64,000 nt of DNA from Chamaesiphon sp. Lineage in GTDB: Bacteria > Cyanobacteriota > Cyanobacteriia > Cyanobacteriales > Chamaesiphonaceae. Shown one piece after another: positions 26,666-54,586 of this stretch (position 1 is the first letter of the stretch; each line of letters opens with the position of its first letter). Made by a program: the position numbers and the translations under genes. The stretch lies in assembly GCA_965246715.1 (NCBI GenBank), contig CBDFFH010000002.1, positions 192,001 through 256,000 of the forward strand, in the 5' to 3' direction. The notes under the pieces are model-generated. The model saw nothing but the letters and a program-made list of their open reading frames with translations, had not been told where the DNA came from and searched no databases.

Positions 26666-26675
26666 TCAAATTGAG

Positions 26676-28001: not shown

Positions 28002-28055
28002 ATCGAGATGTTAATATGTCTCTATTCCGACCGTTAGTAGGCTCCACCACCGAGC

Positions 28056-31011: not shown

Positions 31012-31025
31012 ATGGAGAGACTGAA

Positions 31026-31406
31026 ATGATATATACGATTAGTGATACTTTGTCAGTGAGCGAATTAAAGTTAGCAGCTACAAGACGGATGGTGACTCGA
31101 ATTGAAATAAAAATCCCTGATACTGACGAATCAATTCAAAAACAATTAGCCTATAAACTCACTCGTTCCATTCGTGCTTGTGGATGCGAAATAGGAGCAA
31201 TTTTTTTTACTGCAACGTTGATTTTATTTACAGTCTTAGCCTTCGGAGCAGACAGACCTGTGTTAGAGGTAATTCGTAACAATGCTGTAATAGAAGTATT
31301 CGCATTACTATGTAGCACTATAGCGGGTAAGGCTATAGGTTTAGCCTATGCACAAATTGAGCTTTGGCAAACTCTGAATAAAGTTCAAGTTTTACTACAG
31401 AAATGA
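31026..31406 (+). CDS. Hypothetical two-TM protein
   Basis: ACGC motif followed by two hydrophobic helices; operonic spacing. Confidence 0.65.
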   Translation: MIYTISDTLSVSELKLAATRRMVTRIEIKIPDTDESIQKQLAYKLTRSIRACGCEIGAIFFTATLILFTVLAFGADRPVLEVIRNNAVIEVFALLCSTIAGKAIGLAYAQIELWQTLNKVQVLLQK

Positions 31407-31469
31407 TGATCTAACCGAAATGATTCATTATTTTCCTCGATTGACTGCCCAGTAATCAGGTTAAGTATC

Positions 31470-32459: not shown

Positions 32460-32468
32460 GGTAATGAC

Positions 32469-33632: not shown

Positions 33633-33689
33633 CCAATTACTTTTCAACCTTTTTCTAAATAGTTTTAGACTTACAAATAGGAGATTTTA

Positions 33690-33911
33690 ATGTACACACT
33701 CATTCGTTCACTGCCATTAAATCGCTTGGTTTCAGAACAACTACCCACATTTGTAGTTTCATTTGCAATAGCAGAAACGTTCTACAAATTTCACAGTTTT
33801 ACTTTGGAATGTGGAGCCTTTTTGCTAACTTGGTTTGTCTTCGATGGTTTAATCCAGATTGGATTAAGACTACTTCGAGCTAATCGAACTCACCAGGGTG
33901 AACGCACTTAA
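33690..33911 (+). CDS. Small membrane protein whose last codons were replaced by ISAs1
   Basis: AGGAG RBS; the original end ..ANRTHR* is recoverable across the TSD. Confidence 0.65.
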   Translation: MYTLIRSLPLNRLVSEQLPTFVVSFAIAETFYKFHSFTLECGAFLLTWFVFDGLIQIGLRLLRANRTHQGERT

Positions 33912-35381: not shown

Positions 35382-35484
35382 TCGAACTCACCGATAATTG
35401 GCATAACACAACCATTAAAAATAGATTGACTCATTAAAAATCGAGATGAGATCGAATTAATTTGGGACTTTCACGAAAAACAAG

Positions 35485-35520
35485 TTTTTGGACTGAGGCT
35501 TAACACCCCAGTCCAAAAAA
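35485..35520. terminator. Bidirectional terminator-like hairpin just 3' of gltB copy D
   Basis: TTTTTGGACTG.GG..CC.CAGTCCAAAAAA. Confidence 0.65.
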
Positions 35521-35530
35521 TTCAACCAAT

Positions 35531-35753
35531 CTAACTCCCGCCAATTCGAGCAACATCGCGAGAATTCTCCTCAAAAGCAGCATCGAGCGCATCATCGCCA
35601 CTCAACCCCGAAGCCAGCGCATTCTGGATCGCTTGCAACACCCGTTTATAGTCACGCGGCATCACCTTCACAAACTTGGGTACCATCTCATCCCAGTTGG
35701 CTAGCACCTCTGTTGCTTTCTGACTCTTGGTATATTGAGCGTGTTGCTCGATC
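35531..35753 (-). pseudogene. gltB: gltB 3'-end copy D (223 bp)
   Basis: [23 protein letters not shown]...ARIGGS*. Confidence 0.93.
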
Positions 35754-35757
35754 TCAT

Positions 35758-36165
35758 TTAGCTAACAAAAACTTGAGGTGTAACAATTGGGATACCCCTG
35801 AAAGGATGAAGCACAAGCAAATCAGCATCATCACTGACAATACATCCAGCACCACCACTCACAGCCAATTCGAGAAACTTGTTGTCCTTCGAGTCACGGC
35901 AATCAGTAACAACTTCCGTAACTTCAACAATCATTGCATCATTTACAAATTTAGATAGAAATTGTAACCGCTCATCCTCTGAAATATAACGATTGAACTT
36001 GGGACGGCGCAACACATTATCAAGTTCAACTAGAATAGCATCAGACACTAAAACAGTGCCGAGAAAGAAGGCTAGATCGAATGCTTACCGAGGCACAGAA
36101 CATGGTGATAATACAGCACTGACAATCACATTGGTATCCAAGACAAATGTCTTACTACTCGTCAC
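35758..36165 (-). pseudogene. PIN-family toxin with a premature stop at 36085-36087
   Basis: FVLDTNVIVSAVL..PR*AF..CRDSKDNKFLELA..IVSDDADLL. Confidence 0.85.
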
Positions 36166-36385
36166 CAAGCAAAGTCTCCAAAATTTGAGGTGTTAGCCCC
36201 CGCGCTTCCGCCTTTGCCCCAATATCATCCATGATTTGTTGCAATGAAACGTCAGATGGAGCGAATAGTTCGCGAACATGCAACGATAGAAGCAACTGGA
36301 TCTTCTGTTGTTGCTCTGCTGATGCTTGGCTATATGCAAGAGCCGTAGGGACATCGACAGGAATAGAAATCGTAGTATTTGTCAT
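36155..36385 (-). CDS. Putative antitoxin
   Basis: AEARGLTPQILETLL C-terminus; overlaps the PIN start. Confidence 0.72.
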   Translation of the reverse strand: MTNTTISIPVDVPTALAYSQASAEQQQKIQLLLSLHVRELFAPSDVSLQQIMDDIGAKAEARGLTPQILETLLGDE

Positions 36386-36532
36386 CACTGCTCTCCTTAA
36401 TTTCAAATGAATGGAAATTGCTAACAGAAGAGCAATATTACCCATCAACCTGCTCTTATCTCACTCTATGTCTTGATTATAGCTTTAGACTGTTAGGCTC
36501 GGATTAACGGCTCTATCTCGATCTAGATTCGT

Positions 36533-36862
36533 TTAAAAATTTGGTTTGACGTGCTTAGTCCAGACTTCCATCAAAGCTCTAGCATCACTCGATGATAATT
36601 CCCCTAATTTTCTAATCAATAACGATCGCTCTAGACAATCGAGACGGGACAATCGCACAGTCGAAGCAACCCGCAATCCACAGATCTCCCAGTCAATTAA
36701 CACCACATCTGTTTGAGTCCTTGGTTTAGATGAAGTTACCGCTGCTACCACAACATCATCTCCATCAATCCAGAGGATTAAAACAGGTCTTTTTTTAGAT
36801 GCTGAACCATCGGTGAAAGTTATTTCAGCTATCCATAATTCACCTGCTTTAACAGTCATCAT
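36533..36862 (-). CDS. PemK/MazF-family toxin
   Basis: FTDGSASKKRPVLIL, AAVTS, GLRVASTVRL and KLGEL. Confidence 0.88.
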   Translation of the reverse strand: MMTVKAGELWIAEITFTDGSASKKRPVLILWIDGDDVVVAAVTSSKPRTQTDVVLIDWEICGLRVASTVRLSRLDCLERSLLIRKLGELSSSDARALMEVWTKHVKPNF

Positions 36863-37130
36863 AGAGCTTATCATCTTCTGAACTGTAGCTATTTAGAAAG
36901 GCATCATGAGTACGAATGGAACCTGTCGAATTCGGTTGAATGGCAATCCGATCGATTAAATCCAGCACATCTTGTTCTACAGTGCGCGAGGGTAGGGAGT
37001 TGAGAACATCGCGATCTGCCAAGTCAATAATTTCTGAGATATATCGACGGACTCGATCGGATATTTCTGGTTTCCACTCTTGCAATTTAATTCCTAATCT
37101 CTCAGCCAGGGCATCCATCGGTATCTCCAT
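36849..37130 (-). CDS. Chimeric putative antitoxin
   Basis: N-terminus matches the 27004-27192 protein; unrelated C-terminus HDAFLNSYSSEDDKLYDDC. Confidence 0.72.
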   Translation of the reverse strand: MEIPMDALAERLGIKLQEWKPEISDRVRRYISEIIDLADRDVLNSLPSRTVEQDVLDLIDRIAIQPNSTGSIRTHDAFLNSYSSEDDKLYDDC

Positions 37131-37244: not shown

Positions 37245-40200
37245 CTAACTCCCCCCAATTCGAGCCACATCGCGGGAATTCTCTTCAAAAGCAGCATCGA
37301 GCGCATCATCACCACTCAAACCCGAAGCCAGCGCATTCTGAATCGCTTGCAACACCCGTTTATAGTCACGCGGCATCACCTTCACAAACTTCGGCACCAT
37401 TTCATCCCAATTCGCTAGAACTGCGATCGCTTTCTGACTCTTGGTATATTGAGCGTGTTTGGAGATCGAATCCTTCAACTTACCAATCTCTTCAGCATCA
37501 CTCAGAGTTTCCAAACCCACCATCTGAGTATTGCAGCGTGTCGGGAAATCACCCTGCTCGTCGAGGATATAAGCAACACCGCCACTCATCCCCGCCGCGA
37601 AATTGCGTCCGGTTTTACCCAAGACGATGACTTGTCCGCCTGTCATGTATTCACAACCATGATCGCCGATTGATTCTACAATCGCACTCACCCCAGAGTT
37701 ACGGACACAGAAACGTTCGCCAGCCATGCCGTTGATGTAGATTTCGCCGCTGGTGGCTCCGTAGAGGGCGACGTTGCCGACGATGACGTTTTCGGCGGCG
37801 ATGAAGGTGGATTTGGGCGAGGGATAGAGGATGATTTTACCGCCGCTGAGTCCTTTGCCGATGTAGTCGTTGGCATCACCTTCGAGTTCGAGGGTGACTC
37901 CTTGGGGAATAAATGCACCGAAGCTTTGTCCAGCACTACCTTGGAATTTGAGGTGGACGGTATCGGCGGGGAGTCCGTGCCAGTGGTTTTTGGTGATTTC
38001 GTTACCGAGAATGGTGCCGACGGCGCGGTTGACGTTGCAGATGGGGAGGGTGGCTTTGGTTGGTGTGCCATCAAGAATCGAGTCTTGGCACAGGTCTAAT
38101 AAAGTAGTAATATCGAGCGATTTGTCAAGTCCATGATCTTGGGAAATCTGTTGATAGCGTCCGACTTCTGCTCCAGCTTCCGGCTGGTAGAGGAGGTTGG
38201 AGAGGTCGATATTTTTGGCTTTCCAATGGGCGATCGCTTGTTTGGATTCCAGGATATCGGTGCGCCCGACCATTTCGTTGAGGGTACGGAAGCCGAGGGT
38301 TGCCATGATTTCCCGTAAGTCTTGGGCGATAAACCGCATGAAATTGACGGTGTGGGCGGGATCTCCGGTATAGGTGGCGCGGAGTTCGGGGTTTTGGGTG
38401 GCGATTCCGGCGGGACAGGTATTCAGATGGCAGACGCGCATCATAATACAGCCGAGGGTGACTAGCGGGGCGGTGGAGAAGCCGAATTCTTCGGCACCTA
38501 GCAGGGCGGCGATGGCGATGTCCCGTCCGGTTTTGAGTTGTCCGTCGGTTTCGACGACGATCCGGCTGCGGAGGTTATTCAGGACGAGGGTTTGGTGGGT
38601 TTCGGCGAGTCCGAGTTCCCAGGGGAGTCCGGCGTGTTTGATTGAGGTTTGGGGCGATGCTCCGGTACCGCCGTCGAAGCCGGAGATTAGTACTACATCG
38701 GCGTGGGCTTTGGCGACTCCGGCGGCGATCGTGCCGACTCCGACTTCGGATACTAGTTTGACGTTGATTCGGGCTTCCCGATTGGCGTTTTTGAGATCGT
38801 GGATTAGTTCGGCGAGATCTTCGATCGAGTAGATATCGTGGTGCGGTGGTGGTGAAATTAGCCCTACACCTGGGGTAGAGTGACGGACTTTGGCAATCCA
38901 GGGATAAACTTTTTTACCTGGGAGTTGTCCGCCTTCACCTGGTTTGGCTCCCTGTGCCATTTTGATTTGGATTTCTTTGGCTTGGGAGAGGTAGAGGCTG
39001 GTGACACCGAATCGTCCCGATGCGACTTGTTTGATGCCGCTATTTTTGGAGTCGCCGAGTTCGTTCGTCCAGGTGTAGCGTTCGGGATCTTCGCCGCCTT
39101 CGCCTGTGTTGGATTTACCGCCGATTCGGTTCATGGCGATCGCCAGTCCTTCATGTGCTTCACTAGAGATCGAGCCGTAGCTCATCGCGCCTGTTTTAAA
39201 GCGTTTGAGGATATTCTCGATCGGTTCTACTTCTTCAATGGGGATGGCTGTTTGCGGTTTAAAATCTAACAATCCGCGCAGGGTGAAGTGTTTTTTATCC
39301 TGCTCGTTAATCAGCTTGGCGTATTTTTGATAGATGTCGTATTTACCCGTCCGCGCCGCCTGTTGAAGCAAGTGAATACTTTCGGGGCTGAATAGATGCT
39401 CTTCACCATCTTTGCGCCACTGATAATCACCACCGACATCTAGTGTCGCACCTTTGGCTGGTCGATCGGGGAAAGCGTGAGTATGACGGGTAATCGTTTC
39501 TTGGGTAATTATGCCGACATCAGCACCTTCAATTCGCGAGGCGGTGCGGGTAAAGTATTTATCGATCGTGGCTTGATTTAAACCAACAGCTTCAAAAATC
39601 TGGGCACCACGATAACTCTGAATTGTCGAAATCCCAATCTTCGAGGCAACTTTAGTTACGCCTTTAGTGGCGGCTTTGATATAGTTTTTGACAGCAGTAG
39701 GATAGTCAACATCAAGCAACATTTTCTGAGCGATTAAATCCTCGATCGTCTCGAATGCCAAGTAAGGATTAATCGCTCCACAACCATAACCAATCAACGT
39801 CGCAAAGTGATGAACTTCACGGGGTTCGCCAGATTCTAATACCAATCCGACGCGGGTGCGGGTACCAGTGCGAATTAGATGGTGATGTAAGCCAGCAACC
39901 GCTAATAGTGCAGGGATGGGCGCAGTTTCAGGATTAACACCGCGATCGCTCAAAATTAGGATACTAATACCGGACTCGATCGCTTTATCTGCCGCTGCAA
40001 AAATGACATCTAAGGCTGCTTCCAGACCTTTCACCCCATCGTTAGGGTTGAATAGCATGGGGATAGTAACAGAACTAAATCCACCTTCATTCAGGTGCTT
40101 TAACTTCGCAAGTTCAGCATCACTTAAAATTGGCGATTTAAGGGCGATTAAATGACAACTTTCGGGTTCTGGTTTGAGTAAATTCCGCTCAGATCCGATC

Positions 40201-41888
40201 GTTGTTTGGGCAGAAGTGATAATTTCTTCGCGAATTGAATCGATCGGGGGATTGGTAACTTGAGCAAATAACTGTTGGAAATAATCGTAGAGTAATTTTG
40301 GTCGATCGGACAACACCGCCAACGGTGTATCAGTCCCCATCGAACCCGTTGCTTCCACACCATCCCGCGCCATCGGCGTAATCAGCATCCGCAACTCTTC
40401 AAAGGTATAGCCGAAAGCCATCTGACGTTGGAGAATCCCCCCTAGCCCCCCTTGGGAAGGGGGGGACAAGAGAGACTCTGCTCCGGCTCCCCCCTTATTA
40501 AGGGGGGTTGGGGGGGATTCAGGATCTGCGATGTCCTCCAGCCTGACTAAATGCTCGTCCAACCACGCCTGATAAGGATGTGCGCTAGTAATCTCATGCT
40601 TGATTTCCGCATCGCTCACAATCCGCCCAGCGACAGTATCCACCATGAACATCTTCCCTGGCTCCAACCGTCCCTTCGCCACCACCTGCTCCGGCGGAAT
40701 CGTCAGCACACCCGCTTCCGATGCCATAATCACCAGATCGTCAGTCGTCACATAGTATCGCCCTGGACGCAAACCATTCCGATCGAGTACCGCCCCGATC
40801 GAGCTACCATCAGTAAAGGCGATCGAAGCTGGGCCATCCCACGGCTCCATCAAGCAAGAATGGTACTCATAAAACGCCTTCTTCGCCGCGCTCATCGACT
40901 CATGCGCCGTCCACGGTTCGGGCACCATCATCATCATCGCATGGGGCAAACTGCGACCGGAAAGCGTCAATAATTCCAGGGCATTATCAAAAATTGTTGA
41001 GTCACTACCATCGACATTAATTGCAGGTTTAATCTTCTGAATATCGTCGCCGAATAAATCCGACGCAAACAGCGACTGCCGCGCCGTCATCCAGTTAATA
41101 TTGCCGCGCATGGTATTGATTTCACCATTGTGGGCGATGTAGCGATAGGGATGCGCCCGCTCCCAACTAGGGAAAGTATTGGTACTAAACCGCGAATGCA
41201 CCAACGCCAACGCGCTCTCCATGTCTGGATCTTGGAGTTCGGGGAAATATTGCCCCACCTGCACGGGCATCAACATCCCCTTATACACAATCGTCCGTGC
41301 CGATATACTCGCTACATACCAATGCACATCGACATTCGCCGCCCTAATTGCCGTATGCGCCAGCTTGCGAATCACAAATAACTTCCGCTCGAATGCTAAT
41401 TCATCCGCTAATTCCGGCGATTTGGCAATAAATACCTGCTGCATAAACGGTTCACTCGATTTCGCCGTCTCACCCAAGGAACCATTATCCGTCGGCACAT
41501 CCCGCCAACCCAATACCTTCAAGCCTTCCGCCGCCACAACTTCCGCGAAAATCTGACGACTTTTCGATCGAATCGCTGGATCTGGCGAACCATACACCGC
41601 CCCAACTCCATACTGTCCCGCTGCGGGTAATTCAATCCCTTCAGCAGTCGCCACCTTCTGCATAAACTTGTGAGGCACCTGCATCAAAATCCCCGCCCCA
41701 TCACCTGTATTTGTCTCGCATCCGCACGCGCCACGATGGTCGAGATTAACCAATATCGTCAGTGCTTGCGCCACAATCTGATGCGACTTCGCCCCTTTCA
41801 TCTGCGCGATCAAACCGATACCGCAAGCATCGTGCTCAAACTGCGGATCGTATAAACCTTGTTTGCTGGGTGGTTGAATGGTATTCAT
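37245..41888 (-). CDS. gltB: Glutamate synthase large subunit
   Basis: 1547 aa; EHDACG amidotransferase start, [36 protein letters not shown] (3Fe-4S) and the GXGXG domain. Confidence 0.97.
40435..40519. repeat. In-frame inverted pair of short dispersed repeats inside gltB
   Basis: CCCCCCTT..AAGGGGGG doublet encoding [10 protein letters not shown]...PPSQGGLGG. Confidence 0.8.
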
Positions 41889-43135: not shown

Positions 43136-43552
43136 AAATGTCGATCGTGCCAAAGTGGGATTTCTCCCTGTAATAGGTTTGAGGCTCGATCGATCGGTAT
43201 TGAGGAGCATCTTTATATCCTGTTGACATTATCGATCGATTAGCTTGGGTTTAGTCGATCGTGTCGTGGTTAATTCGATCGTTACAATATTTTTGGTGAC
43301 ATTAATACGCGATCGATTTTGCTTATATCACTCTACAACTGTTAATTTGAAGCCATAGGGTTTCGTCCCAATTCTTCGCGTAACACTCGTCTCAAAGTTG
43401 ATTCTAGTAGAATTTCTCCCTGTAGGTTGGGTTGAAGCCCGCGAAACCCAACAATCCCAGTGTTTGAGGCTCGATCGATTGCTATTGAGGAGCATCTTTG
43501 TACCCTGTAGGAATGATCGATCGACATTAATAACGTTTAGTTTCGCTTGATT

Positions 43553-43972
43553 TTACTCGATCGTCCAATTTTCAACCAGCAGATTGGGTATTCGATCGAA
43601 ATCTCGTGCATTTCTCGATAGTAAGATACCTTGGTTTGCTAAAACGATCGAGGCAATACGTAAATCTTGAGTACCAACTCGAATTCGTTGTGACTTTAGC
43701 TCTCGATAGATAGATTGAGCTTCTACTGTAAACTGCAAGACTTCAAATTCAGACAATAACTTTACTGTTTCCGACAGCCATCGATAAGCATTAGCCAGTA
43801 CATCCCCATCTTTAGCCTCAGATATTTGGGCGAGTCTACCGCGCACTTGTTCCTCAACATTAATTGCGGTAGTCGTCAAAACGATCGACTGTTGTTGCAA
43901 TCTATCTATCAATACCGGATGATTCCTGCCATAGAGACTGAGATGGTCGGTATCGAAAACATAAAGTGTCAT
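43553..43972 (-). CDS. VapC/PIN toxin
   Basis: FDTDHLS, INVEEQ..G, GTQDLRIASI and SRNARDF. Confidence 0.9.
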   Translation of the reverse strand: MTLYVFDTDHLSLYGRNHPVLIDRLQQQSIVLTTTAINVEEQVRGRLAQISEAKDGDVLANAYRWLSETVKLLSEFEVLQFTVEAQSIYRELKSQRIRVGTQDLRIASIVLANQGILLSRNARDFDRIPNLLVENWTIE

Positions 43973-44268
43973 ATTTCATCTTCGCACTCATTGGCAACTT
44001 GACGAATATGAACGAGTTTTTCGATTAGATCGTCGAAGGTTGGATCGTTCTCTAAAATACCCGCATACTGCATTGGCGTAGAATTAATCTTAGGTTCGAT
44101 CGAAATTGTCACAATCTTACCTGTTGACAATTGCGACTCTAACTCGGTTTTGGCATTAGCGATCGCTTCACCTTCTGTATTCCCATCAGCAGCGATAGAG
44201 GGGATTTCAAGTACGGAAGCAGTAAAACCCCGATCCGAACGACTTTTAACAAAAACTTGATACTGCAT
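43969..44268 (-). CDS. HicB-fold putative antitoxin
   Basis: FTASVLEIP..ADGNTEGEAIANAK; ATGA overlap with vapC. Confidence 0.75.
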   Translation of the reverse strand: MQYQVFVKSRSDRGFTASVLEIPSIAADGNTEGEAIANAKTELESQLSTGKIVTISIEPKINSTPMQYAGILENDPTFDDLIEKLVHIRQVANECEDEI

Positions 44269-44539
44269 TTTTTAGCCTAAGTCTCAGTTATTACTAGTAT
44301 TGCATATTCATCCTGTAAATAGTCCGATTACCGACCGTACCTACGCGAACGAGTCAGGAGCGTTAGTAGCTAGATCTCTCTCCGTAGCTTGGATTGAGCC
44401 TTGAAGCCCGACAATTCCTGTGATTGAGGCTCAATCGCTGTTGAGGAGCATCTTTATCCTCTGTCGGAATGATCGATCGATTAGTTTGGGTTTGGTCGTT
44501 GGCGAAGCCTACCGGAGGTAATCGTTGTTGAGTCGATCG

Positions 44540-44954
44540 TTAGCAGCGAGTAATTTCGATCGTGTTTTGCGATCGCCCAAAACAGACATCAAATTCTCGA
44601 AAGAAGTTAGTTTGCCCAAGAATCAAAGGCACCTCAGAGGATTGTACCCAAGCAAATGCTAGACGAACTGATTCCAGATCCCCTATTTGAATATGCAGAA
44701 ATAAACCTCGTGCTTCAACCTTTGCAAGATTTCCAGCCAATGGTAAACGAACAGTTTGTCTCTCCCAAATTGCACCCAATTGTAACCCGATATCATAAGG
44801 CAATAGATTGACCGTAGAACCACTATCTAACAATGCATTCGCCGAGACAGCAAAGTTTGCATAATTCAGCTCGATCGGAATCATCGGTAATGCTTCATCG
44901 TCAGCAAAGGGAAACTCGTTCGCGTAGCGTACCGGAGGTAATCTTCCTAGACAT
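44540..44954 (-). pseudogene. Retropepsin-like (LLDSGS) protein frameshifted by a 22-nt insertion
   Basis: Removing 44919-44940 restores MSRKIEFPFADDEALPMIPIEL.. from an ATG overlapping the upstream gene; ILGQTNFF motif. Confidence 0.8.
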
Positions 44955-45165
44955 GAGTAGATGCCTCTTGGTCATCCCGAATCATCTGCATCAGAACATT
45001 TGCAGCTTCTGTTGCATCGTAAGGCGACCAAACCGGATACTCTGATGCAGAAAAGATAACTTGTAACTCAGCATCTGGAACTTGCGCGGCTAGAAGTTTG
45101 AAAAGTGATAATTTGTCTGGCTGACTTAGATTGTTTACCAAAGGAATTACTTCAGCTAGAGACAT
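44947..45165 (-). CDS. Small antitoxin-like partner
   Basis: LSQPDKLSL..EYPVWSPYDATEAA; overlaps the downstream gene. Confidence 0.65.
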   Translation of the reverse strand: MSLAEVIPLVNNLSQPDKLSLFKLLAAQVPDAELQVIFSASEYPVWSPYDATEAANVLMQMIRDDQEASTHV

Positions 45166-45388
45166 AGTTTAAACTCCCAGACCTACGACAATGCATCTAT
45201 CATAAGCGATCTGTGAGGTGTTGTCTAACAAACCCGTTGCACATCAACCGTGTCAAGTTTGGCTGCCTAAATCGGAGAAGTCATTAGTGAGATTTTCTCC
45301 CCGTATAAACCCAACACTTCCAGTGTTTGAGGGTCGATTAATTGCCATTGAGGAGCACTTTATATTCTGTCGAAATTATCGATCGATT

Positions 45389-45793
45389 TTATGCCAAAAA
45401 TAGTTTTGAGGGCAGGTTAAAACGATCGCTTAATTTTTCCGCTTGAGTAATATCGATCGATCTCTTGCCATCGATAACTTCAAGTACTCGATCGCTAGAG
45501 CCAAATATACCAACTAAATCTGCTGGCTGAACATCGTTCGCATCCATTAAATGTAGCAGTCGGCTGTGGGGAGTCGATAGATTTTGAGATGGATAATGTT
45601 CTGATTCAAATTTTTCAACTAAGATGACAAACAGATCGATTAACCGTTCTTCTTCACCGCTAACTGTCTCCTTACTCATTGATGTTTCGATGATTCCCAG
45701 TACCCGTTCGTATTCTGCTTGCGATCGAATTGGCTGCGGTAATACATCCGCTAAGAGATTGGCATAGGCTTGACGATTAAAAGTAAGGGTCAT
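45389..45793 (-). CDS. higA: HigA-family antitoxin (HTH)
   Basis: PQPIRSQAEYE..LVEKFE..LLHLM..EVIDGKRSI. Confidence 0.85.
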   Translation of the reverse strand: MTLTFNRQAYANLLADVLPQPIRSQAEYERVLGIIETSMSKETVSGEEERLIDLFVILVEKFESEHYPSQNLSTPHSRLLHLMDANDVQPADLVGIFGSSDRVLEVIDGKRSIDITQAEKLSDRFNLPSKLFLA

Positions 45794-46076
45794 TTTTCCA
45801 GTTATCCTTATCGTATTCGGCGTGAGTGAGAAAGTATTTAAAGTAGACTAGCTGCCTAGAATAGTTGATGGAAACAATCAGTCGATAGCGATTGCCTTTA
45901 ATGTTAAATACCGTAAAGTTTCCTACAGCTTCTGCGGAAGCATAGGTTTGTTGAACCTCTGTCAGGTTTTGCCAGGTTACAACTTTAACGATTTCATTCC
46001 AATCTTCAATTTGGGTAGCAATGTCGGAAAATTTAGCAGCAGCTTCCCACAACCTACTAATTGCAATGAGGTGCAT
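45777..46076 (-). CDS. higB: HigB-family toxin
   Basis: VFNIKGNRYRLI..FLTHAEYDK. Confidence 0.9.
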   Translation of the reverse strand: MHLIAISRLWEAAAKFSDIATQIEDWNEIVKVVTWQNLTEVQQTYASAEAVGNFTVFNIKGNRYRLIVSINYSRQLVYFKYFLTHAEYDKDNWKNDPYF

Positions 46077-46533
46077 ATTATCTGCGGAATTCTGGTCTAG
46101 TAAATAGTTTAACGCTAAATCGCACCTTTTTATGAGCGTTGGCGTTGGCGTAGCCTCTGCCTGAGCAGAAGCCGCGCCGAGATGTAATCGCTATTAATTC
46201 GGTTGAGCCTTGAAACCCAATAATCTCAGTGTTTGAGGCTCGATCGATCTCTATTGAGGAGTATCTTTATATCCTGTCGGAATTATCGAGCGATTATTTT
46301 GGGTTTGGTCGATCGTGGTTAATTCGATTGAGCCTTGAAACCCAATAATCTCAGTGTTTGAGGCTCGATCGTTGGCGAAGCCTACCGGAGGTAATCGGTA
46401 TTGAGGAGTATCTTTATATTCTGTCGAAATTATCGATCGATTATCTATTTCGAGGAACCCAACAATTTTAGTGTTTGAGGTTCGTTCGCATAGCGTACCG
46501 GAGGTAATCGATCGCTATTGAGGAGTATCTTTA

Positions 46534-47763
46534 CTCACATCTTGCACCAGAATATAAGTACTAGATTTAGATCGAGACTAATTCCAAGGCAAGACCCTGC
46601 GAGAGCAGAAAGTCTCGCTTCCGATCGATTTCTACTAAAAGTAAACTCACTGCGATCTGTGGCATTAACTGTTGAAGTGCCAGCTCAGATTCCTGTCTCC
46701 ACTCAGGCGGAAGGCTTACGTTTGAGGATAAATAGACCCAGTGGGTGAGTACAAAACTAATAAAGCTCAGAAGCAGCCAACGGTATACACCTAAAAGTGT
46801 TTGTTGACCGAAGCTAGCCAGCCCAAATCGATATTTAGCAGTCTTGAAAAATCCTTCAATTGCCCATCGACGACTGCCCCACCAAGCAATCGTACTGCCT
46901 TTAAGAGCGCGGGTCGAAATCACAAATCTTTTCTCCAACTTACCATCCCGTTTTAAGTAGAACCAGGAAGCCGTAACCACGCCCTCTAAACCTGATAGCT
47001 TAACTTGTTGACCCTTCTTGCCTAGCATCTTCATCTGTCTCCCATCTGCCAGTTTCCGGTTATTCGGTATACCAACAATTGCTTGATGACGAAGTTTTTT
47101 GACCCCGTTGAGGAATTCGACACTACTAAATCCAGTATCGGCTAATACTTGGACTCGAAAGCGGTAAGTGAGTTTCTTGGGCAAGGTGCGGAGCAATTTT
47201 AGCCCCAATTGAGCAGGAGTAGTTGTGCCTTTACCACGCCAGGAACGGAACGCCCAAGGTATTCTCCACTGTCCAACGACTAAGTACAGTACAACCAAAT
47301 GCAGTCCTCGCTTACCGTTGAGAATATGTATCAACGTTGCAAATGCTTTGAATTTCCCCCTTTTCTCCAATGTAGTCAGATCGATAATTACCTGCAAGTA
47401 AGGTCTTTGTCCTTTGGCTGTGTAATTACTCAACTGTTTCAAAATATGTTGGCGAGTCGTACGAATCACGGCTCTGGTTGGCCACCCATATTCATTGAAA
47501 AATCTGCTCAAAGCCGCAGGTGATTTAATCACCCCATGTTCTGGTAACATTTGACCATTCTTAGGTTCCATAAATAGAGCGAAACTAGCTTGGAGACTAA
47601 GTTTCTGATAGGGACTGGGCATCAGCTCTAACAACGTGTAGAGTATTAATTGGGCGTACGGGAGAATGGTATTCACTGTTCTCATCAATGTTTTTACACG
47701 CCCTTTTTCTCATATTTTGACTCCTGCGAAAATCAGTTGTTATGTACTGGTGCAAGATGTGAG
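46534..47763 (-). mobile_element. IS701-like element inserted inside one repeat copy
   Basis: 17-bp IR CTCACATCTTGCACCAG; 4-bp TSD TTTA; the flanks rejoin to GAGTATCTTTATATCCTG. Confidence 0.88.
46567..47688 (-). CDS. DDE transposase (IS701/IS4-like)
   Basis: IIDLT, LADTGF and RWAIEGFFKTAK. Confidence 0.88.
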   Translation of the reverse strand: MMRTVNTILPYAQLILYTLLELMPSPYQKLSLQASFALFMEPKNGQMLPEHGVIKSPAALSRFFNEYGWPTRAVIRTTRQHILKQLSNYTAKGQRPYLQVIIDLTTLEKRGKFKAFATLIHILNGKRGLHLVVLYLVVGQWRIPWAFRSWRGKGTTTPAQLGLKLLRTLPKKLTYRFRVQVLADTGFSSVEFLNGVKKLRHQAIVGIPNNRKLADGRQMKMLGKKGQQVKLSGLEGVVTASWFYLKRDGKLEKRFVISTRALKGSTIAWWGSRRWAIEGFFKTAKYRFGLASFGQQTLLGVYRWLLLSFISFVLTHWVYLSSNVSLPPEWRQESELALQQLMPQIAVSLLLVEIDRKRDFLLSQGLALELVSI

Positions 47764-47935
47764 TTTATATCCTGTTGGAATTATCGATCGATTAGCTTTG
47801 GATTTTGTCGATCGCTTTGCCGACGTTTTTAGTCAGGGCTTGTAAGAGCGATCGATTTAAAAGCTTCTTAAATCGATCGCCATACCCCAACAACCAGTGA
47901 GTTATAATCGACATACGAGACTCAGAAACAACCGT

Positions 47936-48295
47936 ATGACTAGCAGCGAAATTAGCTATACCGAAGCACAGAGTAATTTAAGCGTTCTGCTCGATCGCGT
48001 AGCAGATAGCAAAGATATTATTATAGTCAAACGAGACGGCACCGATAAAAACGTCGCTCTCATTGCCGAAACAGATCTCAGCAGCCTCTTAGAAACGGTC
48101 TATCTACTGAGATCTTCCGCCAACGCAACTAGACTGCATCGGGCAATCGATCGAGCCAAACAAAGAGATCTCCAAGGCTACAGCCATACAGAACCAGAGA
48201 ACCCATCACAATCGATCGCTGCATTATGTGAGGAGTTAGGAATTGTGGCTCTTCACTACTTAGTATGCTCGATCGATAGCAAATGTGGCAAATAG
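47936..48295 (+). CDS. yefM: Phd/YefM antitoxin (C-terminus extended into ISL3)
   Basis: SYTEAQSNL..SLLETVYLLRSSANATRL. Confidence 0.85.
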   Translation: MTSSEISYTEAQSNLSVLLDRVADSKDIIIVKRDGTDKNVALIAETDLSSLLETVYLLRSSANATRLHRAIDRAKQRDLQGYSHTEPENPSQSIAALCEELGIVALHYLVCSIDSKCGK

Positions 48296-49682
48296 AAATT
48301 AATCAATATGTGAAATTGCCATAAAAGTGGAGTGATAATTGACATTGGGGGCATTTTGTTATTAAGTATAATCTAATTGAAAGCGATCTTGAGACAAACC
48401 AGAAGAAAATGCTCACCAAAAAGGAAATACAACTACTAACAGAAGTACTAAATCTAGCGGGAGTAAAAGTAAATGCCAAGCACCAACATGAAGGAATTGG
48501 AATAATTTTAGGAGTTGAGTCGAGCGAAAAAATAAGTGTTTGCCAACGCTGTGGTTTGAAAAGCGACAAGTTACACCAAAACCATCGGCAAATAATCAAA
48601 GATTTGGATTGGGGAGGGCAAGCGGTATTTTTAGAAATAAATAGAAGACAATTCAACTGCGAAAAATGCCAGAAACCATTTAGCGAAGAATTAGAATTTG
48701 TCAAGTCAAGAAGAAGATACACGAAAAGATTAGCAGATCGGATAATAGAAGAAGTATTAGCAGATGACATTAGGAGTGTAGCGAAGAAGGGGAAGGTAAC
48801 AGAGAAAGAAATAGAAAGAATGCTAAAGGATGCATCAGGAGATTTATCAAAAATAAAACCAATAGGATTAAAAAGATTAGGGATAGACGAAATAGCATTG
48901 ATTAAAGGGCAGGGAAAATATTGTGCAGTATTAATAGACATAGATCGTTCTAAATTATTGGCAATTATCGAGGGAAGAACCAAAGAAGAAATTAAGAAAG
49001 TCCTGAGAGAGTGGGGGTCAGAGGTATTAGAAGGAATCGAAGAAGTAAGCATAGACTTATGGCAGGGATATAAAAGTCTAGCAATAGAAATGATGCCAAA
49101 AGCTCAGATAGTAGCAGATCGATTCCATATAATGGTACAAATAAATCAAGAATTAGATGGAGAAAGAAAGAAGGAGAAGCGAAAAATCGAAGCAGAAATA
49201 AAGCAAGCAAAAACCCCAGAAGAAAAAGCGGAGAAAGCGGCTATATTAGCAGGAATAACTAATAGTAAGTATCCAATATTGAAAAACGAAGAAGACTTAA
49301 ATGAAGAACAGAAAGACAAGCTAGCTCAGGTAAAAAATGTATCAAGTCAGCTCGGAAAAATGCATCAATTGAAAGAGGATTTTCGAGAAATATTTGAGAA
49401 AAAGGAAAACTGGAATGAGGGATTACTAGGCTTAGGGGAATGGCTGTCAAAAGCTCAAAAATATTTTGTCAAAAGTCAAGGGACAATTTATCGATGGTTT
49501 GATGAAATACTGGCTTATTTTGACAATGGAACAACTAGTGGAGTAGTGGAGGGAATTAATAACAAGCTAAAACTAATCAAACGTTCAGCATATGGATTTA
49601 CTAATTTTGAGAATTTCCGAAATAGATGCTTGCTTAATTGGCACTTCAATCATTAATTTGGCATACTAACTAGTGAAGAGCC
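48247..49682 (+). mobile_element. ISL3-family IS (distinct from the 24092 element)
   Basis: IR GGCTCTTCACTA.TTAGTATGC; 8-bp TSD GGAATTGT. Confidence 0.93.
48409..49656 (+). CDS. ISL3-family transposase
   Basis: LGIDE, ADRFH and EGINNKLKLIKR. Confidence 0.95.
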   Translation: MLTKKEIQLLTEVLNLAGVKVNAKHQHEGIGIILGVESSEKISVCQRCGLKSDKLHQNHRQIIKDLDWGGQAVFLEINRRQFNCEKCQKPFSEELEFVKSRRRYTKRLADRIIEEVLADDIRSVAKKGKVTEKEIERMLKDASGDLSKIKPIGLKRLGIDEIALIKGQGKYCAVLIDIDRSKLLAIIEGRTKEEIKKVLREWGSEVLEGIEEVSIDLWQGYKSLAIEMMPKAQIVADRFHIMVQINQELDGERKKEKRKIEAEIKQAKTPEEKAEKAAILAGITNSKYPILKNEEDLNEEQKDKLAQVKNVSSQLGKMHQLKEDFREIFEKKENWNEGLLGLGEWLSKAQKYFVKSQGTIYRWFDEILAYFDNGTTSGVVEGINNKLKLIKRSAYGFTNFENFRNRCLLNWHFNH

Positions 49683-49686
49683 GGAA

Positions 49687-50010
49687 TTGTCCGCTAAAAA
49701 GAAAGATAAAAATCGCTCTGAAAATTCTCAACCAGAAATAATTATCGTTCAAAGGCAGATTATTTTTGATGAAGATTTCCGAGAAGATTTGCAATGGTGG
49801 TATCGGCAAGGCGTTCAAAAAGCCAACAAAATACTCGATCTAGTAGAATCCATTTGTATAGATCCATTTTTAGGAATTGGTAAACCAGAACCACTAAAAT
49901 TCATGGAAGCAAATACATGGTCGAGAAGGATAGATTTAGAGCATCGACTAATTTATCGAGTTCAAAATGAATCTATTCAATTCTTACAAGCTCGTTACCA
50001 TTATGAGTGA
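49687..50010 (+). CDS. yoeB: Txe/YoeB toxin
   Basis: FREDLQWW..PFLGIGKPEPLK..WSRRIDLEHRLIY..QARYHY. Confidence 0.93.
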   Translation: MSAKKKDKNRSENSQPEIIIVQRQIIFDEDFREDLQWWYRQGVQKANKILDLVESICIDPFLGIGKPEPLKFMEANTWSRRIDLEHRLIYRVQNESIQFLQARYHYE

Positions 50011-50275
50011 GATTTTTTCCCGTAGGTTGGATTTAAGCCTGCGAAGCCCAACAATCCCAGTGTTTGAGGCTCGCTCGTTGGCGAAGCCTACCGGAGGTAA
50101 TCGCTATTGAGGAGCATCTTTAATATCCTGTTAAGATTATTGCTCGATCGATTAGCTGGGGTTTGGTCGATCGTTGTTGATTCAATCGATTGCCTCGATA
50201 CTTTACTCGTTGGCGGAGCCTCTCATGAGAGAATCGGGTAAAATTAGGAGGCTGTAGTAAATTGCGGTGTAAACT

Positions 50276-50518
50276 ATGACAGAACTGCTTCAACAGGTAA
50301 TCGCCCAAATCGAACAACTGCCAATCGATCGACAAGAGGCGATCGCGGCTCGGTTTCTGGCAGAATTGGCGGAAGAACAACAAGCTGAGAACGTATGGGT
50401 TGAAGATGTCCGATCGAAAATTGATGCTGCCATTTCAGCCTCAGAGCAAACGCCACCGATCGATGGCGAAACCTTCGTTAACCAAATTTTAGAGCGGTTT
50501 CAGCGCGATCGGGTGTAA
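50276..50518 (+). CDS. Putative antitoxin (ParD-like C-terminus)
   Basis: Small ORF directly upstream of a ParE-like gene. Confidence 0.68.
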   Translation: MTELLQQVIAQIEQLPIDRQEAIAARFLAELAEEQQAENVWVEDVRSKIDAAISASEQTPPIDGETFVNQILERFQRDRV

Positions 50519-50524
50519 ACATAC

Positions 50525-50824
50525 ATGAGTCTCTATGTTATTAACGTTCTTGCCAGTCGAGATCTGATTGAAATCGCTGACTACTTTGCTGAAACCAATG
50601 TAGAAGTAGGCGAACGATTTTTTAAAGAATTTAATAGCAAGTGTCAACAACTAGTTTCCTTTCCCAGCAGTGGTAAAAGCTATGGAGCAATTCGCCCAGA
50701 TCTCAGAGGACTATCTCTCGAAGGTTATATTATTTTCTACCGTATTCTCGATGATGGCATCGAAATCCTCAGAGTTGTTAGTGGTCGTCGTAATCTTCCA
50801 GCACTTTTTAGCGACCCAGACTGA
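50525..50824 (+). CDS. RelE/ParE toxin
   Basis: ASRDLIEIADY..FPSSG..YIIFYR..IEILRVVSGRR. Confidence 0.9.
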   Translation: MSLYVINVLASRDLIEIADYFAETNVEVGERFFKEFNSKCQQLVSFPSSGKSYGAIRPDLRGLSLEGYIIFYRILDDGIEILRVVSGRRNLPALFSDPD

Positions 50825-51088
50825 TTAACTGAGTGGGTTTTCTTTCCGTAAGTTGGGTTGAAGCCCTCGGAACTCATCAATCTCAGTTTTGAGGCTCGTT
50901 CGCATAGCGTACCGAAGGTAATCGTTGGCGAAGCCTACCGGAGGTAATCGCTATTGATGAGTATCTTTACATTCTGTTGAAATTATGGCTCGATCGATTG
51001 GCTTTGGTTTAGTCGATCGTGGTTGATTCGATCGATCTTTGGTGTGATGGTTTTGGGATCGATCGATACGAATGACGGTCGAACGAGA

Positions 51089-51448
51089 TTATTGGAGTAA
51101 GATATCTGCCGGAATATCCAACTGACCGTGAAGTGCGCGAATCATTTCTAGCGTTAAAGTTTGACGTTTAGACATTACTTCTGACACTAAATATTCGCTA
51201 CCAATAATTGGAATTAGATCGGCCTTCAATCGATCTGACTGTTCTAGTCGAAACTCGATCGCGGCGATCGGATCTGGTAATCCGATTGGAAAATATTTAT
51301 CTTCATATAACTCAATCAGAGTTGCCAGTACTTCTAATTCATCAGCTTCAGGTGTATTCGGCTAAGATGACATCAAAGCTCCCGCTCGTTCCAATGCATC
51401 CTGATAATCAGTTTCAGTTTTAATCGGTCTAATTAAAGCAGTATTCAT
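51089..51448 (-). pseudogene. HigA-like antitoxin with an internal TAG at 51362-51364
   Basis: Manual translation: MNTALIRPIKTETDYQDAL..SS*PNTPEADELEVLATLIELYE..PDPIAAIEFR..LTLEMIRALH. Confidence 0.82.
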
Positions 51449-51572
51449 ATTAACTCTACATCAATGGTATCGTAATCTTGATGAGTTCCAACAAATCGGA
51501 TAAAAATAATCTGTGTGGATCGCGTTGAATTAGCCACAGAAATACATGAGTATCCAGCAAAAACCGACCCAT
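51445..51572 (-). pseudogene. Fused remnants: vapC 5' end plus higB 3' end
   Basis: MGRFLLDTHVFLWLIQRD joined at CGATC (51518-51522) to QIIFIRFVGTHQDYDTID. Confidence 0.8.
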
Positions 51573-51784
51573 TACATATATTCCTGTAAATCATCTAAAG
51601 GCGCATTAAAATCATCAGACATCCACACCTCTTCCTTCCAGATGCCGAAAGCATTTTTTCGATCTAGTGGGGGTGTTTGCACCGACTGATTATGCTTTGC
51701 AACCAAACCCTCAATATATTGCAGGGCTTCCTGTTGCACCGACTCTGGTAGTCGCTGAATTTGTTCGAGGAGTGTTTGCTCCAT
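51572..51784 (-). CDS. DUF2281-like antitoxin (orphaned)
   Basis: IQRLPESVQQE..FGIWKEEVWMSDDFNAPL. Confidence 0.8.
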   Translation of the reverse strand: MEQTLLEQIQRLPESVQQEALQYIEGLVAKHNQSVQTPPLDRKNAFGIWKEEVWMSDDFNAPLDDLQEYM

Positions 51785-52157
51785 ACGATTATCAAGGGCA
51801 ATAAATATGTACCCGTATTTTAGCTCAAACCTATGGAAGCGCACTCATAAGTATCAAAGTGAAATAATTTAGCTAGGGATATTTCTCCCTCTAGGCTGAA
51901 TTGAAGCCTGCTAAACTCAACAATCCCAGTGTTTGATGCTCGATCGTTGGCGAAGCCTACCGGAGGTAATCGCTATTGAGGAGCATCTTTATACCCTGTC
52001 GAAATTATCGATCGATTAGCTTGGGTTTGGTCGTTGGCGAAGCCTACCGGAGGTAATCGTCGTTAATTCGATCGCGAAGCGTGGGCTTTGCCCAATCGTT
52101 GCAACATTTGTGGTAACATTGAGAAGATATCGATCCTCTATCTAGCCAAAAATACTT

Positions 52158-52379
52158 ATGCTGCTAAATATCAAAAAACGCGGTAACTCACTGAGTATCA
52201 TTGTCCCCAAAGAAATGGCAACGAGTATGAGTGTTGAAGATGGCGATACCCTCTTCGCCACCAAAACACCATCGGGATATGAGATTTCCGCATACGAGCC
52301 TAGTTTCGCAGCTAAAATGGAAGCGGCTCGACAAGGAATGAAAAAATATCGCAATGCCTTAATCGAGTTAGCAAAATGA
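52158..52379 (+). CDS. AbrB/MazE-type antitoxin
   Basis: KRGNSLSIIVPKE..KYRNALIELAK. Confidence 0.87.
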   Translation: MLLNIKKRGNSLSIIVPKEMATSMSVEDGDTLFATKTPSGYEISAYEPSFAAKMEAARQGMKKYRNALIELAK

Positions 52380-52783
52380 GCGAACCTTGTTGGCTAGATA
52401 CTCGTGATGTTTGTGCCATTCACAATGAAATCATTGTTCAATCTGGTGGTGATGCTGGCATCCTCAATGAAGGTGCTTTGGAATCAACCTTAAATAAACC
52501 CAAAAATCTGTATTGCTATGCTGATGAAATAACTTTATTCCCATTAGCAGCCGCTTATGGCTATGGGCTTGTCAAGAATCATTGTTTTATCGATGGTAAC
52601 AAAAGGATCGCGCTGATTGCTGTGTACACATTTCTATCGATTAATGGAATCGAACTGACAGCATCAGAAATTGATGCTGCAAATTTTTTCTTGGAGCTAG
52701 CAGCAAGTCAGGAAAATCAAGAAGAAGGAATGAGTAGATTGGTAAACTGGCTGCAAATCAATAGTGAGATTTCTCCACTGTAG
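52376..52783 (+). CDS. doc: Doc (death-on-curing) Fic-family toxin
   Basis: HCFIDGNKR motif; ATGA overlap with the antitoxin. Confidence 0.9.
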   Translation: MSEPCWLDTRDVCAIHNEIIVQSGGDAGILNEGALESTLNKPKNLYCYADEITLFPLAAAYGYGLVKNHCFIDGNKRIALIAVYTFLSINGIELTASEIDAANFFLELAASQENQEEGMSRLVNWLQINSEISPL

Positions 52784-53271
52784 GCTGGGTTAAGCCTCGA
52801 AAACCAACAATTCCAGTGTTTGAGGTTCGCTCGTTGGCGCAGCCTACCGTTAGGTAATCGCCGTTGAGTAGCATCTTTTATACCCTGTCGAAATTATCGA
52901 TCGATTACCTATTTCGAGAAACCCAACGATTCCAGTGTTTGAGGTTCGTTCGCATAGCGTACCGGAGGTAATCGATTGCCATTGAGAAGCATCCTTATAT
53001 CCTGTCAAAATTATCGATCGATTAGCTTGGGTTTGGTCGTTGGCGAAGCCTACCGGAGGTAATCGTCGTTAATTCGTTGGCGTAGCCTCCGCTTTGCGGA
53101 ATCGATCTTTGGTGCGATGGTTTTGGGATCGATCGCCTATGGCACCCTACGCGATCGATGTTGATGACGATCGAGCTAAATTCACAATCGCTCATGATAT
53201 AATTATACTAGCCAATTGTAGACAATCGATGTTGGATATTTTGGCTCAACTACTTAACTTCAGGACAGAAT

Positions 53272-53514
53272 ATGAGCGATCGAGTAGTTACCGGAACGAT
53301 CGACAAAGATGGTGTTGTTACTTTTGACGAGGAAGTAACGATCTCCGAGCCTCAAGCCGTTACCATAATTTTCAATGCTGGTATTGAAGCTAGTAAACCT
53401 GAACTCAAAACGCAACAAGAGCTAACAGATAAAATCATTCAAGGCTTACACGAAGCAATTACAGGGAAAACAGTACCTCTGTCAGCATTATGGGACGAAG
53501 TAGATGCAGACTGA
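53272..53514 (+). CDS. Orphan antitoxin-like protein
   Basis: IQGLHEAITGKTVPLSALWD C-terminus; an overlapping downstream ATG runs into a repeat copy after ~11 codons. Confidence 0.55.
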   Translation: MSDRVVTGTIDKDGVVTFDEEVTISEPQAVTIIFNAGIEASKPELKTQQELTDKIIQGLHEAITGKTVPLSALWDEVDAD

Positions 53515-53586
53515 TGAGACGCAACCTCCTGTTAGGTAATCGCCATTGAGGAGCTTCTTTATACCCTGTCGAAATTATCCTCGATT

Positions 53587-53878
53587 TCATGCCAAAAGTA
53601 GTTTTGAGGGCAGATTGAAGCGATTACTTAATTTCTCAGCCTGATTGAGATCGATCGAGCGTTTACCATCGATAACTTCCAATACTCGATCGCTAGAGCC
53701 AAATACATCAATTAAATCTGCTAGTTGAACGTCATTCGCATCCATTAAATGCAGCAGTCGGCTGTGGGGAGTCGATCGATTTTGAGATGGGTAATGTTCT
53801 GATTCAAACTTTTCAGCTAAGATGACAAACAGATCGATTAGCTGTTCTTCTTCACTGCTAACTGTCTCTTTATTCATT
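53587..53878 (-). pseudogene. 5'-truncated second higA copy
   Basis: Close paralog of 45389-45793 from MNKETVS onward. Confidence 0.82.
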
Positions 53879-54255
53879 TGCCTGGGCGCATCAATACACA
53901 TTCTATGAGTCCAAGAGTTCAAAAAATTCAAGCACGAATCGAAGAATATTTAGTGGATGAAGTCAAGAAAATTCCCGCAAAACTAATTCTACTCGGAACT
54001 TCTGATGTAATTGAGTCATTATTCGGTAAATATAAAATTTTTGCCCAAAGACGACCAATAAAAGAGCTTGGGGCTAGGATCTTACTCATTCCTTTAGCCA
54101 CGATAGAAATTACACTCGATTTAGTCAAAGAAGCAATGGAATCCATCAGCTTTATCGATGTTGTTAACTGGGCTAAATCCATTTTTGGTTCTTCGATGCT
54201 CTCACGCCGAAGAAGCCTGAATTCAGCCGCAAATTCTGACGCAAAACCTGCATGA
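53879..54255 (+). pseudogene. Transposase C-terminal fragment (family uncertain)
   Basis: LGTSDVIESLFGKYK resembles a DDE third-residue helix; abuts and truncates higA. Confidence 0.6.
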
Positions 54256-54586
54256 AGTCTTGTCCTGTCTGGGAGGACAAAATTAACATGCTAGGCACTG
54301 CCCACCCAGCCCTTTCAATGTGACAAAAACAACATGCATGTAACGGCGGAAATCCGTCTTCGGATCGATCGAGACTAGTGGTTGAGTGCCCCTCCTCGAT
54401 CGAATTATGAGCAGTTTTTCGACCGCCGAAGACGGTGCGCAAGCTTCGAGGAGGGGCACGCCATAATTGAAAAAGATTCAAAACCGCATTCTATTATCGA
54501 TCGAAAAACAGTAGTAAAACAGTAACTTCTGTCACATTGAAAGGGATGGCACTGCCCACCCTACATAATAGATATTTAAGTGTATT

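Follow-up and report, generated by a model that had tools for sequence, protein, structure and literature searches.

Among the closest described relatives of the element reported here is small dispersed repeat 5 (SDR5) of the Nostocaceae, which is said to go back to Elhai et al. 2008 (Genome Res 18:1484). SDR5 reportedly has a conserved secondary structure with compensatory changes and is said to be exclusive to the full octamer of the highly iterated palindrome HIP1, and how repeats of 21–27 nt move has reportedly been an open question since 2008. In passages of three papers, SDR5 is inserted between HIP1 bases 3 and 4 (PMC4390886), is 21 nt long with a function still called unknown in 2026 (PMC13756078), and is reported only in Nostocaceae, with none outside (PMC5861425). 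Here we analyzed a 64,000-nt stretch of Chamaesiphon sp. DNA (assembly GCA_965246715.1, contig CBDFFH010000002.1, positions 192,001 to 256,000; hereafter the window), the 6.1-Mb genome to which it belongs, and related genomes. The window contains numerous 22–24-nt inserts, each composed of two hairpins, that belong to a real, mobile, recently active family of micro-elements with an unusually high copy number in this genome.

We file the element as a variant of the SDR5 type, SDR5 being known to us by description and not by consensus sequence. The two have in common a very small insert at the same bond, here CG^ATCG, and the covarying two-stem structure of the element matches the compensatory changes said to occur in SDR5. 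They differ in that the element is 22–25 nt long (there are 0 copies of 21 nt in the genome), has its own terminal A (190/197), and needs only the CGATCG core of the octamer. Its host also differs, probably being a non-heterocystous Chamaesiphon-type cyanobacterium outside the Nostocaceae. The original prediction had proposed a family related to SDR5 with a relaxed target, and this was supported: the 21-nt insert found in Nostocales at GCG^ATCGC has the same order of TT, stem 1, T and stem 2 and grades into the present element in sequence, and here the octamer is relaxed to CGATCG. That Nostocales 21-mer, judged from its sequence, is probably SDR5 itself. Inserts of the SDR5 type are already known as such, and what is new are leads on their target rule and strand chemistry.

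Anatomy and target of the element

A structural scan of the whole genome found 195 copies with the lead dinucleotide TT, about 3 per 100 kb, comprising 128 distinct sequences. Each unit reads TT, stem 1, a GNA loop, T, stem 2 and a terminal A. Stem 1 pairs GGC with GCC in 143 copies and CGC with GCG in 46, loop 1 is GNA in 169 of the 195 with all four bases at its middle position, and stem 2 consists of three or four further pairs closed by a 3–4-nt loop. The near-invariant core of stem 1 is GCGNAGC, a DNA mini-hairpin motif, whereas the four bases directly before the right junction are variable on the GNA strand. A length of 22 nt had been predicted, which fits most window copies; however, the copy at 52834 is 23 nt, and genome-wide the commonest length is 24 nt (116 copies, against 59 of 22 nt, 9 of 23 nt and 11 of 25 nt).

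The null for the genome-wide scan was the same structural pattern with other lead dinucleotides. Fourteen of these gave 7 matches summed, and an AT lead gave 10, of which 7 resemble decayed elements. In the window the pattern matched 15 times with an expectation of 0.00 and 0 matches in 100 shuffles, and all 12 of the starts first listed there carry CG^TT-stem1-stem2^ATC. No longer, autonomous copy was found among 57 stem-1-only matches, nor for 23 CACT-flanked copies that all represent one site of a MITE (miniature inverted-repeat transposable element). The element itself has neither the terminal inverted repeats nor the target-site duplication of a MITE, and the Rfam annotation of the window contains one tRNA only and no match to the element.

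The stems covary. Among 96 distinct sequences of the 24-nt class, which were chosen without a pairing rule, the five variable pairs are Watson-Crick in 83–92, far above column shuffles (means 37–62, maxima 49–71), although related sequences inflate this contrast. Only two pairs vary in the 22-nt class; they are Watson-Crick in 19 and 20 out of 20 cases, against null means of 10 and 15. Structure is thus conserved beyond sequence, as had been claimed, but with the qualification that stem 1 is conserved in sequence too.

Insertion is at the G^A bond of CG^ATCG, that is between HIP1 bases 3 and 4, with zero target duplication. The bond had been predicted exactly; the target, given as CG^ATC, is in fact one base longer. 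In a scan with ATC imposed and the left side free, the left flank was CG in 173 of 184 cases, compared to 38% in background, and the right flank was ATCG in 168 of 184. The full octamer GCGATCGC (GCG^ATCGC) holds only 13 of 197 copies and TCG^ATCGA holds 45. The most frequent 8-mer of the genome is TCGATCGA, at 757 per Mb, and GCGATCGC, the next compared, occurs at 458 per Mb; these values match the Chamaesiphon frequencies of 750 and 448 in a passage of PMC4390886. Although the target is a palindrome, it is used asymmetrically, with A before CG in 4% against a background of 15%, and G after ATCG in 8% against 16%. We considered an extended hairpin as the target and rejected it, as CG^ATCG flanks show no extra complementarity over the four nearest pairs (first pair 59/176 versus 31%). 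Complementarity of the sixth pair was higher than background (63/176 versus 25%), and CG^ATCG target sites fold no better than background. There was little evidence of local hopping outside the array in the window.

Elements of the CGC type start CG-TT-CG, a single change away from CGATCG. The start CG-AT-CG was found in 8 of 50 CGC-type elements and in 0 of 145 GGC-type elements (p = 1e-5). This excess of AT leads is a direct sign of biased conversion of a near-site to CGATCG, akin to the ratchet model in the part of PMC4390886 that treats it.

Origin of the long form, its spread and its effect on genes

Orthologous sites and stem covariation had both been named beforehand as tests that could refute the prediction, and neither refuted it: the stems covary, as described above, and orthologous sites show that the short form is ancestral. 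In menD, this genome and its close relative G330 are the 2 rows out of 26 aligned that carry a 24-nt insert, and five other rows have TGCGATCG at the insert position. The DUF2254 gene has a 22-nt insert in one of eight rows, the remaining seven reading TCG^ATCG, and a transglutaminase-like gene has an insert in one of four. The menD insert differs at 3 positions between the two genomes, within a gene that is 99% identical; most other copies shared by this genome and G330 are identical or have one difference.

When 93 elements of G330 were compared with this genome, 53 had no counterpart and 18 stood opposite an exact, zero-gap empty site, which was CG^ATCG in 10. A further 21 faced a 22–25-nt gap (20 with an element, one with unrelated sequence), and one stood against an element with additional sequence. 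At 70–88% identity, some of the pairs may be paralogues. Within this genome an ungapped empty paralogue was found for 68 of 195 copies, some of them only 71–80% identical. Because these empty alleles join with zero gap, the absence of a target duplication, which had been predicted, is confirmed. No precise excision joint was seen among the 15 joints listed from contigs of four sequencing runs, to which 93 unlisted joints have to be added.

The elements have also reached coding sequence. Long open reading frames (ORFs) contain 48 of the 116 24-mers, 46 of them in frame, and 12 of the 79 copies of other lengths, all of which break the frame. The total in long ORFs is 60 of 195 elements, compared to 255 of 400 random CGATCG sites. 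Each of the 46 in-frame copies adds eight amino acids to its protein, and 20 of these are in sense and 26 in antisense orientation. The element therefore lengthens dozens of proteins and breaks others. Taken together, the exact empty alleles in orthologues and paralogues and the 12 broken long ORFs indicate that the long form is derived.

These data refute, for the family, the idea that the element is not mobile, the long form being ancestral or copied only with its host repeat and the short forms being deletions. Passive copying has inflated the counts, since a single repeat accounts, through three of its positions, for 11 of the 12 copies first listed in the window, and 23 more copies share one MITE site; for many copies within the window this reading holds. 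However, the flanks of the 195 copies form 162 clusters, of which 148 are singletons, unrelated genes with inserts have empty orthologues, 12 long ORFs are frameshifted, and one and the same site can hold differing elements (52071 and 53077).

All 39 genomes of the host family carry the element, with 22–263 copies in the genus, throughout which it has expanded, and 8–73 in its sister genus, and a reversed-pattern control across the family genomes gave 0. In a sample of the phylum 43 of 301 genomes matched, those outside the genus with 1–11 copies each, and counts in most other genomes of the order range from 0 to a few. The 21-nt form at GCG^ATCGC was found at no fewer than 80 named loci, of which 41 are cyanobacterial, mostly Nostocales; among the loci listed, stem 1 is paired in 41 of 41 cyanobacterial cases and both stems in 30 of 41, compared to 4 of 39 non-cyanobacterial ones. 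Five named Nostocales genomes have 1–12 copies of the same pattern, in 21-, 22- and 24-nt forms, compared to about 200 copies here, and two forms in such genomes are identical to variants of this genome. The element was not found on two N. punctiforme plasmids, and a loose pattern gave one structured match among the loci listed for viral sequences. As a side observation on the host, the PF00148 profile has only two matches in the genome, which by sequence appear to be subunits of the dark protochlorophyllide reductase; nitrogenase seems to be absent.

Possible modes of movement

We tentatively favor, at somewhat less than an even chance, that the element is a non-coding, non-autonomous SDR5-type mobile element whose movement takes place as folded single-stranded DNA, with an HUH-like nicking-joining enzyme acting in trans to cut and rejoin it. 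In the strand reading TT-stem1-stem2, two hairpins would form directly next to each other, so that CG and ATCG are brought together. Cuts by the enzyme at CG^TT and at the base of stem 2 would release a small strand or circle resistant to nucleases, which would be joined into a CG^A site; replication would then fix the inserted copy. Insertion without target duplication is a property of the IS200/IS605 family. As precedents, the relevant parts of PMC6006769 and PMC8266576 describe how IS200/IS605 TnpA and TnpA-REP act on single-stranded DNA hairpins via a 5'-phosphotyrosine. The element shares with IS200/IS605 two hairpins, target-specific insertion and a single-stranded DNA logic; it differs in having no transposase gene, in being an order of magnitude smaller, and in that both target flanks are constrained whereas its 3' end is variable. 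With repetitive extragenic palindromes (REPs) and their REP-associated tyrosine transposases (RAYTs) it shares being a small, non-autonomous hairpin repeat of a kind thought to be processed as single-stranded DNA in trans. In contrast to REPs, its foot is NNCG-TT with no GTAG or GGAG, it inserts into genes, no RAYT subclass among those tested clearly co-occurs with it, and two RAYT genes have themselves been hit. The cut is at CG^A, compared to C^T or C^A for REPs in a passage of PMC8266576.

That the moving strand would be DNA is suggested by three observations. An excerpt of PMC13037366 describes the GCGNAGC DNA mini-hairpin as heat- and nuclease-resistant, the RNA counterpart of the 8-mer being much less stable. 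Mismatches in the 24-nt class comprise 9 G.T and 10 A.C, that is, no excess of G.T, and there is no sense bias in genes. For these reasons a folded single DNA strand is favored over RNA. We consider it improbable, though not negligibly so, that movement goes through an RNA copy on which the reverse transcriptase of a group II intron, a retron or the like acts by reverse transcription or reverse splicing. Absence of target duplication is typical of group II introns as well, and reverse transcriptases are present in the genome (22 matches) and in 5 of 5 relatives checked; presence everywhere checked is, however, uninformative as to a partner. Speaking against RNA, in addition to the GNA triloops being a DNA motif in the same part of PMC13037366, are the 128 distinct sequences among 195 copies, which argue against one master template, and the lack of any reverse-transcriptase family recurring beside 415 sites, with families judged by eye. 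Separately, we noted at least five reverse-transcriptase matches within 20 kb at G000:C43:22760-42656, one of them in an open frame of 1326 residues.

Several observations weigh against the HUH-like enzyme. No candidate tracking the element was found among the enzyme types tested, and the suggested co-occurrence with HUH or reverse transcriptase genes yielded no specific partner. For Y1 transposases of subclass 1.2, close orthologues at E < 1e-50 are equally frequent in genomes with and without the element (7 of 40 each), and at E <= 1e-25 the counts are 12 and 14 of 40. Two RAYT-type queries match 16 and 24 of the 39 family genomes, and G342, with 43 elements, has no match in any of the three enzyme searches. 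In the complete genome G306, unlike what is seen for IS608 and ISDra2, element orientation shows no bias by replichore (123 GGC-type sites, p = 0.81), with power limited by the unknown position of the origin, and the local GC-skew trend in the present genome (117 versus 78) is weak and non-independent. IS200/IS605 elements end in a fixed tetranucleotide, whereas the four bases before the right junction vary here. An excised form was not observed, folding energies with DNA parameters favor the proposed strand in only 42 of 128 sequences, and part of the covariation may stem from template switching after insertion. Among the neighbors of 415 sites (1418 ORFs), no nuclease or recombinase recurred in the 28 largest clusters. 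Around RAYT genes resembling subclass 2.4 we counted 15 elements in 92 kb (12 of 30 loci), compared to about 3 per 100 kb genome-wide; these genes have GTAG REPs of their own, two are disrupted by elements, and 15 of 39 genomes lack a match.

The main rival, which we regard as possible but doubtful, dispenses with a dedicated transposase: host nicking or recombination at methylated CGATCG would copy the folded element from a filled to an empty site, by template switching or site-specific exchange. The target is a CGATCG methyltransferase site, and directed cutting at HIP1 has been proposed in a passage of PMC4390886 to account for SDR5. All 39 family genomes have elements, yet no tested mobile enzyme is universal among them, and element density follows CGATCG density (rho 0.78 overall and 0.42 within the genus, the genomes being non-independent kin). 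Template switching is visible at L409 in G330: compared to the shared site near 27309 of G000:C15, the loop of stem 1 has been inverted and the palindrome has grown longer. This is the signature of a template switch and shows that the hairpin forms during replication. Set against this are the asymmetric use of a palindromic target and the few or 0 copies in most other genomes of the order, even though HIP1 is abundant in most cyanobacteria according to PMC5861425. Flank co-conversion is not supported either. In 59 filled/empty pairs, the empty core was CG^ATCG in 37, and core mismatch was 6% and 10% compared to 12% and 9% in the flanks; as core mismatches do not exceed flank mismatches, the flanks are not carried along with the element. 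These pairs likewise lend no support to a double cut carrying ATCG, which we had considered together with co-conversion. Identical elements had flank bases in common slightly more often, an excess that may reflect unfiltered repeats.

A second target also remains unexplained by a host process at CGATCG, as subfamily B and nested copies use non-HIP sites. In seven cases an element has inserted at GCG^NAGC within the stem-1 loop of another. Subfamily B, defined by a CTGC/GCAG stem 2 and the lack of its own terminal A, occupies 36 sites, several of which are homologous, with junctions fixed by empty REP-like and MITE copies. Its left flanks are CG in 31, TG in 4 and GG in 1, and its right flanks AAG in 19 and AGG in 7 but ATCG in 0 of 36, so that its target is YG^AR, mostly CG^AR, in other hairpins. 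Emptied subfamily B sites fold at -8.3 kcal/mol compared to -5.4 in background (p = 5e-6), although only 8 of 36 lie under the 5th percentile of background folding energy. The nested insertions and the location of subfamily B in more-folded sequence were counted for structure-guided targeting. The main family and subfamily B share the cut at CG^A, and the type of stem 2 goes with the type of target, an association that is not shown to be causal. SDR1 and SDR4 are reportedly nested small repeats too, and, compared by description only, they resemble the element in that it inserts into its own copies, other small hairpin repeats and MITEs. The subfamily B pattern, in contrast, is nearly confined to the host family (5 of its 6 genomes, among 151 of the order). 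At L452:1548-1955 (G000:C14) and at L454, long palindromic repeats with GNAG-loop hairpins lie on both sides of a Y1 subclass 1.2 gene, and these repeats are hit by subfamily B; in the part of PMC6006769 on this subclass, such genes are generally without terminal structures.

A tyrosine recombinase such as an integron integrase could also integrate a folded strand, and the G^TT and G^AT junction geometry is present in the sequence; at an attC site the junction reads G^TT. The genome has 23 tyrosine-recombinase matches. We nevertheless regard this as very unlikely. The right junction is A^AT in 190 of 197, an attC site is far longer than the 22–25 nt of the element, and the element-poor genus has integron integrase in 11 of 12 genomes, compared to 8 of 26 further genomes of the element-rich one. 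There was no TIGR02249 match at E <= 1e-40 in this genome, and none in G306.

Returning to the folded DNA strand, a bolder form of the proposal is that these are the smallest active transposable units known, a 22–24-nt DNA mini-hairpin pair moved by an undescribed nicking-joining enzyme, with stem 2 choosing either the CGATCG palindrome or a mini-hairpin loop. We consider this unlikely as a whole; if true, that enzyme could be what has long been sought as the cutter of HIP1 sites in cyanobacteria. As a tool, an enzyme able to write a short oligonucleotide into a 6-bp site with no scar or duplication would be interesting, and it may have a bearing on the purpose of HIP1. The mobility question becomes testable in a genus that has 22–263 copies per genome, recent differences between strains, a defined bond and a core made of a DNA mini-hairpin. 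Our literature search, with subscription papers mostly outside its coverage, found no publication that offers a mechanism or reports these elements from the genus, and passages of PMC3116915, PMC3733652, PMC2884548 and PMC3184786 held no added sequence or mechanism.

Copies in the window and their surroundings

Most window copies lie on the forward strand upstream of gltB, in an array of toxin-antitoxin genes (43150–53600) with spacer repeats of about 130 bp between them that are the source of both empty and filled alleles. The 12 inserts originally listed are all real, but they occupy only four distinct sites and are mostly not independent: 11 lie within copies of the spacer repeat, at three positions with 3, 5 and 3 copies, and the other is at a unique site. 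Site A holds 22-nt elements at 46485–46506 (CGC-ATA-GCG; empty paralogue 46242^46243), 50899–50920 and 52949–52970. Site B holds 22-nt elements at 46372–46393 (empty paralogue 46246^46247), 50078–50099, 50925–50946 (4 nt past the site-A element) and 51947–51968, and the 23-nt element at 52834–52856. Site C holds 22-nt elements at 44499–44520 (GGC-GAA-GCC and TACC-GGA-GGTA), 52034–52055 and 53040–53061; the first has empty paralogues at 46311^46312, where the predicted empty allele GGTCG^ATCGT is indeed present, and at 50169^50170. The unique site, 44919–44940, has a 22-nt element of the CGC-GTA-GCG type with the right flank ATCT.

Variants had also been placed near 3560, 23478, 44326, 50209, 52074 and 53077, and these were found at corrected coordinates. 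On the forward strand are a 23-nt element at a unique site (50210–50232) and two differing 24-nt elements at spacer site D, one at 52071–52094 with an AT lead instead of TT that creates a new CGATCG, and one at 53077–53100. On the reverse strand, 44329–44349 is a decayed 21-nt element with a broken stem 1 at CG^ATCG, and 23479–23500 is an intact element sequence whose flanks are CA and GTCT and not CG/ATC, indicating an off-target insertion or an altered site. A 22-nt element at 3563–3584, also on the reverse strand, lies within a MITE-like repeat that has many empty copies. This repeat (3500–3620 and about 60 other places) has long perfect terminal inverted repeats and elements at three internal sites, at one of which the first base past the insert differs from the empty copies. 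We also found a 24-nt subfamily B element on the forward strand at 46145–46168, inserted at GCG^AAGC in the loop of stem 1 of a decayed element starting at 46139, and on the reverse strand a probable decayed element with an AT lead at 53134–53155.

The gltB gene (37245–41888) has toxin-antitoxin arrays on both sides (21435–36874 and 43150–54500). Partial gltB copies that are 85–94% identical are interspersed in the downstream array (21435–22391, 26528–26658, 27013–28001 and 35529–35745), and the spacer repeat interspersed in the upstream array is nearly exclusive to the locus. G306 has a shorter array at the corresponding place. The arrays look like the product of repeated cassette capture in which a local anchor was duplicated at each capture. 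Short stretches starting TCTAACAA stand next to small genes (44828–44890 and 45224–45300) and resemble what we take to be remnants of integron attC sites; at 22–25 nt, in a genome where no integron integrase was found, the element itself is not attC-sized and differs from an integron cassette.

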